From the IMG/VR virus record IMGVR_UViG_3300045988_163839: DNA of 33,440 bases; one strand, 5' to 3'. The translations under genes and the position numbers were made by a program. The stretch comes from a virus. This document shows positions 31,703 through 32,210 of this stretch, in pieces. Under the pieces are notes generated by a model. The model searched no databases. It was not told where the DNA came from and worked only from the letters and a program-made list of their open reading frames with translations. Numbering within the stretch: position 1 is the stretch's first letter; every line of letters begins with the position of its first letter.

Positions 31703-31731
31703 TTGACAACATCAGCCAAATAGATTATAAT
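31703..31731 (+). promoter_or_regulatory. Rightward early promoter P_C
   Basis: TTGACA (31703-31708), 17 nt, TATAAT (31726-31731). Confidence 0.7.
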
Positions 31732-31802
31732 AAAGATACAATCAAGGTTGACAAGCGACCGAGATTGAATAAAAAGGCAAGCAAAAAGGAGGTAGAGTCC
31801 AA

Positions 31803-31949
31803 ATGAATGTTGAGCAAATGGAGGCAAACGGAATGACGAATGCGCAACTAAACGCATTGCTTGAAACGATAGCAAGACGGATAGAAGCAGAAGCACAGAA
31901 CGCCGCTGAAGCCGCTCAAATAGTCAGGGAAGCTAAGGCGGAAGGCTAA
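31803..31949 (+). CDS. Leader small ORF of the P_C transcript (48 aa, Ala/Glu-rich helix)
   Basis: RBS AAGGAGG. Follows the AGGCAAGC leader motif (31775-31782). Confidence 0.45.
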   Translation: MNVEQMEANGMTNAQLNALLETIARRIEAEAQNAAEAAQIVREAKAEG

Positions 31950-31956
31950 AAGGGAA

Positions 31957-32043
31957 GCCGCTCGGTTGAAAGTCCACTAAACCAAAACCGAACGGCGCCA
32001 AGAGGGCAGAGGGGTAACGCTTGCCGCCCCTCTGACACCCTCT
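31957..32043 (+). ncRNA. Double-hairpin RNA element, copy C (variant loop specificity)
   Basis: Hairpin 1 spans 31957-31967 / 31986-31996 (10 of 11 bp). Hairpin 2 is CAGAGGGG (32007-32014) / CCCCTCTG (32027-32034). Loop GCTTGCC (32019-32025) is complementary to GGCAAGC at 31776-31782. Confidence 0.55.
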
Positions 32044-32051
32044 GATTATAC

Positions 32052-32210
32052 GACAGGCAGGTAAAAAAGTCAAATAAATTGGAGGATTTAAAAAATGGAT
32101 TTAGGAATACGCACAGAGGAAGCAAAAGAGACGCATGTATTAGAGAAAACAGAAAATAACGCGGAGTTTTTATATTATTTTATCGCGGCGTTATTGCAGG
32201 AAATGCCTTA
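32052..32210 (+). repeat. 159-bp direct repeat, partner of 2826-2984
   Basis: Two mismatches over 159 nt by manual alignment. Confidence 0.9.

Follow-up and report, generated by a model that had tools for sequence, protein, structure and literature searches.

The locus described here raises the question of whether a short sequence in the leader of a phage transcript base pairs with the loop of a hairpin further along the same transcript and, if it does, whether a matched change in the two partners gives one genome a second RNA specificity. The locus, termed module C (31703–32073, plus strand), lies in the viral record IMGVR_UViG_3300045988_163839 of IMG/VR, the whole 33,440-nucleotide stretch of which is referred to as the window. 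It represents a prophage of gut Clostridia, with a phage-type genome in circularly permuted form, in which 33365–33440 repeats bases 1–76; the minus strand carries nearly all of its long genes, and its regulatory region, which spans the window junction, contains three similar plus-strand units, A (ca 1116–1447), B (ca 2584–2847) and C. In each unit, the plus-strand mRNA has two single-stranded sites flanked by A residues, M in the leader and M′ downstream of a hairpin (hairpin 2), both of which complement the loop of that hairpin. Judging from the covariation of loop and sites, it is highly probable that the pairing of the loop with M and M′ is a real RNA interaction under selection, and a predicted antisense RNA from the opposite strand would compete for the same loop.

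The leader–loop pairing of module C

Module C opens with a promoter that scores 12/12 in a scan (TTGACA 31703–31708, 17-nt spacer, TATAAT 31726–31731, plus strand). The leader site M_C, AGGCAAGC, follows at 31775–31782 (plus strand), 44 nt after the −10, with GGCAAGC at 31776–31782 as its pairing core. The complement of M_C, GCTTGCC (32019–32025, plus strand), lies within the 12-nt loop of hairpin 2 (32015–32026), and the computed duplex of the two is worth −14.0 kcal/mol. The loop is carried by an upper stem (32007–32014/32027–32034) and a lower stem (32001–32006/32038–32043) and is preceded by hairpin 1, the arms of which are at 31957–31967 and 31986–31996. Between the leader site and the hairpins lies a small open reading frame (ORF; 31803–31949, plus strand), whose Shine–Dalgarno sequence GGAGG (31788–31792) starts 5 nt 3′ of M_C. 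Relative to modules A and B, where the leader site is AGGCAGGT and the loop ACCTGCCT, module C has G→A with C→T and T→C with A→G, such that seven Watson–Crick pairs are kept. A first-pass annotation of this DNA had located the leader site, loop, hairpins and downstream site of module C and had proposed exactly this two-position compensatory change, with seven contiguous pairs preserved; all of those positions are confirmed, as is the change itself when C is aligned to A and B. In the 33-kb window, moreover, AGGCAGGT occurs six times against 0.34 expected, a number reached in none of 100 shuffles, and all six occurrences are leader, loop (reverse strand) or downstream sites of modules A, B and C.

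Covariation across the family

The same annotation had concluded that the base pairing of leader and loop is real, and the relatives of the module bear this out, in that compensatory changes recur in independent relatives and M–loop pairing is kept with at least five sequence types among 19 distinct members from Clostridia genomes, IMG/VR viral contigs and metagenomes (designated here by L numbers). Type 1, with M AGGCAGGT(T) and loop (A)ACCTGCCT, occurs in A and B of the window, in a fourth module in L027 and in L159, L163, L165 and L167. Type 2, (C)GGCAAGC with GCTTGCC(G), occurs in C of the window and in L162, L221 and L246, the helix being lengthened to 8 bp in L221 by an added C–G pair. 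Type 3 has M AGGCAGGC with the loop GCCTGCC(T) or GCCTGCCT (L161, L166 and L286); type 4 has G(G/A)ACGAGAG with TTCTCGTTC in L158 and L240, between which one M position is G–U vs A–U; and type 5, GCGGTGA with TCACCGC, is that of L164. The pair in L211 is GCAGGC/GCCTGC. Across the 19 members, the longest Watson–Crick helix between loop and leader has a mean of 7.5 bp within the own module and of 5.1 bp between types, and shuffled loops reach at least 7 bp in 5.8% of trials (155-nt leader window). On these counts, the match of M and loop is beyond chance. M ends 6–23 nt upstream of the start codon of the small ORF, always within the translation-initiation region, and A-runs flank M.

The sources of close relatives were IMG/VR and those contigs that encode the 72-aa protein of the gene following module C; divergent ones were retrieved with a loop-free pattern, GAGGGG-N-CCCCTC-N-ATTATA-N17-AGTCAA, which fixes the promoter hexamers and the stem. 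In bacterial genomes, one per species, this pattern gave six divergent copies, all in Clostridia: Ezakiella peruensis, a Christensenellaceae, a Subdoligranulum, a Lachnospiraceae and two Clostridia/Clostridiales metagenome-assembled genomes. Viral and metagenome contigs yielded further copies. Many of the metagenome hits brought a promoter and a hairpin together by chance and were discarded, which left ca 20 distinct true members. The family is shallow within each motif type, and a MAFFT alignment of 19 RNAs was poorly registered for a covariance model, such that explicit pairing counts were used instead. Searching module C with blastn against 50,697 phage records gave no match, and the DNA patterns GGCAGG..AAAAAGTCAA and stem plus ATTATA returned near-identical phages and chance terminators only. 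Protein retrieval with the 129-aa repressor and the small-ORF peptide returned only close relatives and one false positive, L412. A promoter-free pattern, GGACGGC..AGGGG..CCCCT, gave no new member among viral contigs, chance hits in GC-rich phages being dominant, and every true hit of it carried the antisense promoter described below.

The downstream site and the shared segment

When plus-strand G–U pairs are allowed, 19/19 members show a helix of at least 6 bp between M′ and the loop of the same module, ten of them needing the G–U; the mirror rule, in which A–C is allowed as for a wobble on the minus strand, improves the pairing much less. The M′–loop pairing is therefore to be regarded as a plus-strand RNA interaction. 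M′ also changes along with the loop type: for type-2 loops it is AGGCGAGC in L162 and AGGCAAGT in L221 and L246, for type 3 it is GCAGGC or GCAGGT, and for type 5 it is CGGCGG against CCGCCG.

In module C of the window, M′ is AGGCAGGT (32055–32062, plus strand) and thus of the A/B type. As the first-pass annotation had noted, the C loop meets this site through G–U pairs, over 7 bp including two of them, at −11.6 kcal/mol. The annotation had ascribed the type of the site to a segment shared with module B. That segment exists, although the 159 bp given for it is slightly short: it extends over ca 174 nt at 97.7% identity and begins directly after hairpin 2 (window 32037 = 2811). M′ of module C is of type 1 because the segment from 32037 onward is shared with the stretch after module B. 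The ascription holds, since L162, L221 and L246, which have C-type loops, also have C-type M′ sites; judged by these relatives, the A/B-type site in module C of the window is recombinant, the 3′ part of the module having been replaced by recombination.

How separate the two addresses are

The computed duplexes of the A/B loop are worth −15.4 kcal/mol with M_A, −15.5 kcal/mol with M_B and −7.8 kcal/mol with M_C. Those of the C loop, beside the value for M_C given above, are −11.6 kcal/mol with both M_A and the type-1 M′ and −13.8 kcal/mol with M_B, loop C tolerating the A/B sites through G–U pairs. The compensatory changes in RNA and targets are seen, and the discrimination predicted from them is asymmetric. 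On these energies, the two addresses are only partly orthogonal, with strong discrimination in one direction: A/B loops would reject M_C, and loop C would bind M_A and M_B nearly as it binds M_C. The second specificity that had been claimed for module C stands in that C has a distinct address, which A/B loops are predicted to reject; it does not stand for the C loop, which would accept the A/B leader sites.

A predicted antisense RNA on the minus strand

In the first-pass annotation both hairpins had been read as plus-strand RNA only, a reading which overlooked a near-consensus promoter and the predicted intrinsic terminator of hairpin 1, both on the minus strand. Downstream of hairpin 2, all three modules keep two blocks, ATTATA and AAAAAGTCAA, which on the minus strand become TTGACT–17 nt–TATAAT, pointing at hairpin 2. 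These minus-strand promoters score 11/12 with a 17-nt spacer and lie at 32073→32045 in C (TTGACT 32073–32068, TATAAT 32050–32045), 2847→2819 in B and 1447→1419 in A, with M′, that of module C included, inside the 17-nt spacer at a variable position. The order of elements on this strand is hairpin 2 first, then hairpin 1 and then a U-run. Hairpin 1 here reads GCCGUCC...GGACGGC and then UUUUCUUUUUU in A, and ...GGGCGGC and then UUUUUGUUGUUU in B; in C (31957–31996, minus strand), it is a predicted terminator with an 11-bp stem that includes one G–U, ...CGAGCGGC and then UUCCCUUUUAG. In hairpin 1 of B, C and most type-1 relatives, the stem includes a minus-strand G–U pair that is a C–A mismatch on the plus strand, and the stretch over both hairpins (82–93 nt) has fold energies, minus vs plus, of −34.3 vs −24.9 kcal/mol in B and −39.1 vs −32.9 kcal/mol in C. 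Indeed, a minus-strand hairpin with a U-run follows hairpin 2 in every member, even where the sequence of hairpin 1 is unrelated.

The minus-strand promoter arrangement is present in all relatives, most of the distant ones having been retrieved with both promoter hexamers required, and it is present also in those retrieved promoter-free, by way of the 72-aa protein or the small-ORF peptide. Among all fetched loci, no member with the hairpin and a leader match of at least 7 bp was without the antisense promoter. Taken with the hairpin-1 terminator, this promoter means that each module would also encode an antisense RNA of ca 80–95 nt. We consider the existence of such an antisense RNA gene, with promoter, start and terminator all predicted, to be probable. 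In module C the RNA would cover 31946–32038 (minus strand; ca 93 nt, with inferred ends), and the loop of its 5′ hairpin, CGGCAAGCGUUA, is a copy of M_C; the corresponding predicted loop reads UUAGGCAGGUUGUU in A and B. Since the antisense RNA is the complement of hairpin 2, its loop shares the sequence of the leader site M.

A proposed three-partner switch and its alternatives

These features suggest that each module is a sense–antisense RNA unit that controls an early phage transcript from within its leader, a mechanism towards which, taken as a whole, we incline on balance. Three partners would compete for the loop of the sense RNA: the two cis sites M and M′ and, in trans, the antisense loop. 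When the loop pairs with M, ribosome binding at the small ORF would be blocked, and the contact between sense and antisense RNA would be a loop–loop kissing interaction that grows into a complete duplex. A lysogen would have its early promoter repressed, with the antisense RNA as the abundant species; this dominance is expected because the sense promoters adjoin operator-like palindromic repeats and divergent repressor genes and no operator is visible at the antisense promoters. Early transcripts with a matching loop type, whether from leaky expression or from a superinfecting phage, would be captured by the antisense RNA, which would prevent expression of the downstream switch genes and would in this way form a second, RNA-level layer of immunity on Cro/antirepressor-type genes, in which the loop sequence is the address. 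A wider proposition is put forward more tentatively, as possible rather than probable: that gut Clostridia prophages contain a previously undescribed three-partner RNA switch (a sense loop, two cis complements and a loop-mimicking countertranscript) with a freely evolving address, RNA immunity groups and several units per genome wired to different switch genes, the hairpin being also an inversion breakpoint that puts switch genes under antisense promoters.

Several points weigh against the sense–antisense mechanism. The antisense promoter, its transcription start and the terminator are predictions, and conservation of the promoter is unbiased only in the closer relatives, most of the distant ones having come from the pattern that requires its hexamers. 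The net effect of the antisense RNA could be either repression or activation, and the immunity function and the direction of regulation are what we infer. In A, B and C there is no plus-strand terminator between hairpin 2 and the next gene that the antisense RNA could induce. The distance from M′ to the downstream Shine–Dalgarno sequence varies between 6 and 30 nt and, because it is not fixed, pairing at M′ cannot simply occlude the downstream ribosome-binding site. L160, alone among the members, has no recognisable M and also no recognisable M′, and L158 is without a divergent repressor. Pairing in the lower stem of hairpin 2 is better on the minus strand, yet this stem starts just 2–4 nt after the −10, such that the antisense RNA should lack part of it; as a discriminator of strands, this stem is ambiguous. 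Finally, M–loop complementarity alone suits the minus strand equally well, as a pairing of the antisense loop with the complement of M in a read-through transcript.

This last point can be developed into a scheme in which all pairing is on the minus strand: a lambda P_RE-like antisense promoter would read toward the repressor gene, and the 5′ loop would pair with the M complement in the read-through RNA and so control termination at hairpin 1 or translation of the repressor. The antisense promoter does aim at the divergent helix-turn-helix (HTH) gene in A, B and C, the M–loop complementarity is strand-symmetric, and both the terminator and the lower stem pair better on this strand. However, the complement of M′, lying in the promoter spacer, would stay untranscribed, yet M′ covaries with the loop and needs plus-strand G–U; M is always at the ribosome-binding site of the small ORF, which has a rationale on the plus strand only; and the lack of a divergent repressor in L158 counts here too. 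We regard the scheme as improbable. Rather unlikely, in turn, is a system purely of the P4 CI or P1 c4 type, where plus-strand hairpins cut from the early transcript would act in trans on M and M′, and the minus-strand promoter and terminator would be incidental or serve fine-tuning. The order M–RNA–M′ matches seqA–CI–seqC of P4 (PMC4825925), the G–U pairs in both M′–loop and M–loop pairing favour the plus strand, and one relative has a downstream Bro-N gene of antirepressor type, comparable to c4–ant (PMC12197685); but hairpin 1 has C–A mismatches on the plus strand in most members, the U-run follows on the minus strand only, and the sense RNA should be scarce in a lysogen, given a sense promoter that adjoins operator-like repeats and a divergent repressor. 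Nor is there a match to the Rfam C4 family: on both strands the whole window gave no Rfam hit at the gathering threshold, with no C4 hit to E=10 for module C or E=5 for A and B, and the modules are therefore not members of the c4 family.

An antisense RNA alone would suffice for a classical countertranscript system, M and M′ then being chance similarities or leftovers of duplication. In at least five sequence types, however, both M and M′ have kept their complementarity to the loop, and their functional positions are conserved, which makes such a simple cis-antisense RNA very hard to credit. A similarly slight probability is given to the 8-mers being DNA sites of a sequence-specific protein, either a repressor or a recombinase at hairpin 2, which would have changed along with the specificity of the protein. 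This would account for three copies per module in forward, reverse and forward orientation and for hairpin 2 being an inversion breakpoint in the relatives L144 and L076. Against it, the small-ORF family with the GWTD motif occurs with motif types 1, 2 and 3, and one motif type is found beside different repressors (129-aa and 74-aa HTH) and together with different small-ORF families, an independence that argues against a protein reader of the motif; M′, moreover, varies by G–U-preserving transitions and at variable spacer positions, and the sites are non-palindromic and 36 and ca 200 bp apart.

Among the readings considered, a protein operator was rejected on the independence of motif type from the neighbouring repressor, as were a plus-strand intrinsic terminator or riboswitch and, with types 4 and 5 not resembling a Shine–Dalgarno sequence, Shine–Dalgarno/anti-Shine–Dalgarno mimicry. 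A type I toxin–antitoxin locus was also rejected because the small-ORF peptides are acidic and hydrophilic rather than hydrophobic and membrane-active.

Comparison with known RNA systems

In P4, the CI RNA pairs with seqA upstream and seqC downstream (PMC4825925), and c4 of P1 and P7 controls the antirepressor ant and underlies heteroimmunity (PMC12197685). The modules resemble P4 CI and P1/P7 c4 (a1b1, a2b2) in having the regulatory RNA in the leader of the operon that it controls, in an exposed RNA sequence that complements one upstream and one downstream site on the same transcript (in A, B, C and 19 relatives), in lytic-switch genes under control that include the antirepressor type, and in compensatory changes of RNA and target between phages. 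They differ in that the hosts are Clostridia rather than Proteobacteria, that a small ORF lies between the upstream site and the RNA, that the downstream site does not overlap a ribosome-binding site and that the opposite strand has its own predicted promoter and terminator, for a countertranscript that copies the target sites. The first-pass annotation's analogy with P1 c4 is thus apt for the layout of site, RNA and site on one early transcript upstream of switch genes, and does not extend to the Rfam C4 family.

With P22 sar, lambda OOP, RNAIII of pIP501 and RNAI/II of pT181, the modules share a short antisense RNA with its promoter, here a predicted one, within the regulated leader or intergenic region. 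As in those countertranscripts, there is a 5′ stem-loop for loop–loop recognition, an own intrinsic terminator and a convergent promoter. A sense-strand terminator induced by the antisense RNA is a point of difference, none being found here between hairpin 2 and the next gene, and so is the ribosome-binding site of the downstream gene, which the antisense RNA here leaves uncovered. To our knowledge, two cis copies of the antisense loop sequence on the sense RNA are not a feature of the sar, OOP, pIP501 or pT181 systems. The type I toxin–antitoxin systems bsrG/SR4 and txpA/RatA are alike in their prophage setting, in a small ORF followed by a convergent antisense RNA (again predicted here) that overlaps the 3′ untranslated region, and in a possible long-range coupling of the 3′ region with the ribosome-binding site. 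Unlike them, the ORFs here are acidic and hydrophilic and do not encode membrane peptides, the unit runs on into a downstream regulator gene, and in copy B the RNA parts persist although the ORF has been lost.

Judged by these comparisons, the modules would be a new, non-homologous variant of RNA-based phage immunity modules. We know of RNA-based control of lysis and lysogeny almost only from phages of Proteobacteria (c4, CI, sar and OOP). In the literature, no description of such a unit was found for phages of Gram-positive bacteria, and the terms ‘Gram-positive’ and ‘Clostridi’ are absent from a 2025 review of phage small RNAs (PMC12197685). The family would extend RNA-based switch control to abundant prophages of gut, rumen and other Clostridia, and its natural set of at least five short, co-changed addresses makes base pairing and cross-immunity testable by compensatory mutation. 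If confirmed, the sense–antisense–mimic layout would be a compact, programmable design for orthogonal RNA regulators. Experiments are possible because a cultured carrier exists, Ezakiella peruensis M6.X2 (L158), which is the only genome of a cultured isolate seen to carry the unit.

Setting of the modules, small ORFs and downstream genes

Each of the three units opens with a near-consensus promoter back to back with a small HTH gene on the minus strand, of 129 aa (661–1050), 74 aa (2270–2494) and 70 aa (31380–31592); the last of these, beside module C, has a promoter that scores 12/12 (31651→31623, minus strand) back to back with the sense promoter. Module A (1116–1447, plus strand) consists of a promoter at 1116–1144, M at 1182–1189, a small ORF at 1196–1309, hairpin 1 with arms 1335–1341/1363–1369, hairpin 2 with arms 1380–1386/1402–1408 and the loop ACCTGCCT at 1392–1399, and M′ (AGGCAGG) at 1431–1437, with a Cro-like HTH gene (1457–1660) as the next gene. 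Module B (2584–2847, plus strand) has its promoter at 2584–2612, M at 2653–2660, hairpin 1 with arms 2742–2748/2764–2770, hairpin 2 with arms 2781–2787/2803–2809 and the loop ACCTGCCT at 2793–2800, and M′ at 2829–2836. Its small ORF has shrunk to ATG TAA, and where the ORF was lost the leader contains a CRISPR-repeat-like unit (2698–2733).

The small ORFs belong to two or three families of 37–56 aa, acidic, hydrophilic and predicted to be helical, and their peptides show no known domains or family matches. The peptide of module C, with 48 aa, hydrophilic and predicted to be helical, has no Pfam or PHROG match; it is kept in L162 and partly in L211. The genes downstream are more varied: Cro-like HTH genes in A, L163, L165 and L167, a Bro-N protein of antirepressor type in L159, an SprT-like metalloprotease in L166, a ribbon-helix-helix protein in L158, the 68/72-aa family in B and C, and unknowns in several other relatives. 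The 72-aa gene after module C (32095–32313, plus strand) is a paralogue of the 68-aa gene after B and of a 34-aa ORF at 595–699, in a shallow family with a conserved core of ca 30 residues. The 34-aa ORF, a third and shortened paralogue (core FLYYFIAALL..YE.GEKLL), has its own promoter-like site at 514–542 and overlaps the 129-aa repressor gene, which is on the opposite strand, at the 3′ end of the latter.

In L138, a relative in the integrated state, the genes run integrase, HNH, HTH70, module C, 72-aa gene, cargo, 129-aa repressor, module A, Cro-like gene and early genes, which places module A exactly at the repressor/Cro switch. In Ezakiella peruensis (NZ_LT962469.1; L158, 5018–7255), the module, at ca 6830–7100 of L158, follows lysin-/holin-like genes and precedes a 49-aa ribbon-helix-helix gene; the unit can therefore also occur away from the repressor/Cro position.

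Rearrangements and repeats around the modules

The window is an inversion isomer of a phage seen in L143, with 100% identity on both sides and the block 2985–29014 inverted. The junctions (window 2979–2990 and 29010–29021) read ATGCCT-TA-AATGTT and GCTTCG-TA-AAGCG, as produced by a reciprocal exchange at TA between attP (AACATT-TA-AAGCG) and a site inside the 68-aa gene (ATGCCT-TA-CGAAGC). The attP adjoins a serine integrase gene (29152–30567), and the host junction of prophage L138 is at the same position (window 29014–29018). The inversion looks like an integrase-mediated self-inversion at a palindromic core rather than a misassembly. It trims the 68-aa gene after module B to 38 aa (2869–2985) and leaves the early genes behind the integrase operon.

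L144 (200–400) and L076 (12555–12660) show an inversion between A and B with hairpin 2 itself as the breakpoint; in these, the reverse complement of the Cro-like gene with its M′ is followed by a reversed hairpin 2 and the 3′ part of module B. Two antisense promoters there face each other across the hairpin, each predicted to drive what lies beyond the other, the Cro-like gene in one case and the 68-aa operon in the other. Inverted copies of the hairpin-2 breakpoint region form the end of contig 3300045988_182789, which suggests that both orientations are present in the sample. L137 (5900–6005 and 8900–8930) is a third rearranged relative, in which TA-AA links the attP half-site (window 2983) to window 1908, and a TATAAT/ATTATA palindrome connects the reverse complement of an 86-aa gene with the 3′ part of hairpin 2 from module C; the part from the integrase to hairpin 1 of module C is absent within the 12-kb stretch read.

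An element resembling a mini-CRISPR array lies at 1699–1866, with three copies of a 36-nt repeat, GTTTGAGAGCCTTGTTATTTTGTAAAACTCTCAAAC, 30-nt spacers and a 66-nt period, flanked by 27-nt inverted repeats (1679–1705/1859–1885). Solitary copies of the 36-nt repeat occur at 2183–2218 and at 2698–2733, the latter being that in the module B leader. The Rfam CRISPR-DR22 hits on these repeats are weak, at 18–22 bits, and the phage collection contains no match to spacer 2 of the array.

The 72-aa gene is followed by a SocA/Panacea-domain gene and then a membrane-protein gene (window 32688–33164 and 33158–239 across the end), which form a candidate toxin–antitoxin pair. In L137–L142, an Abi_2 gene on the other strand (ca 6289–7227) takes the place of this pair, and the region after the 72-aa gene looks like a cargo hot spot for defence genes.

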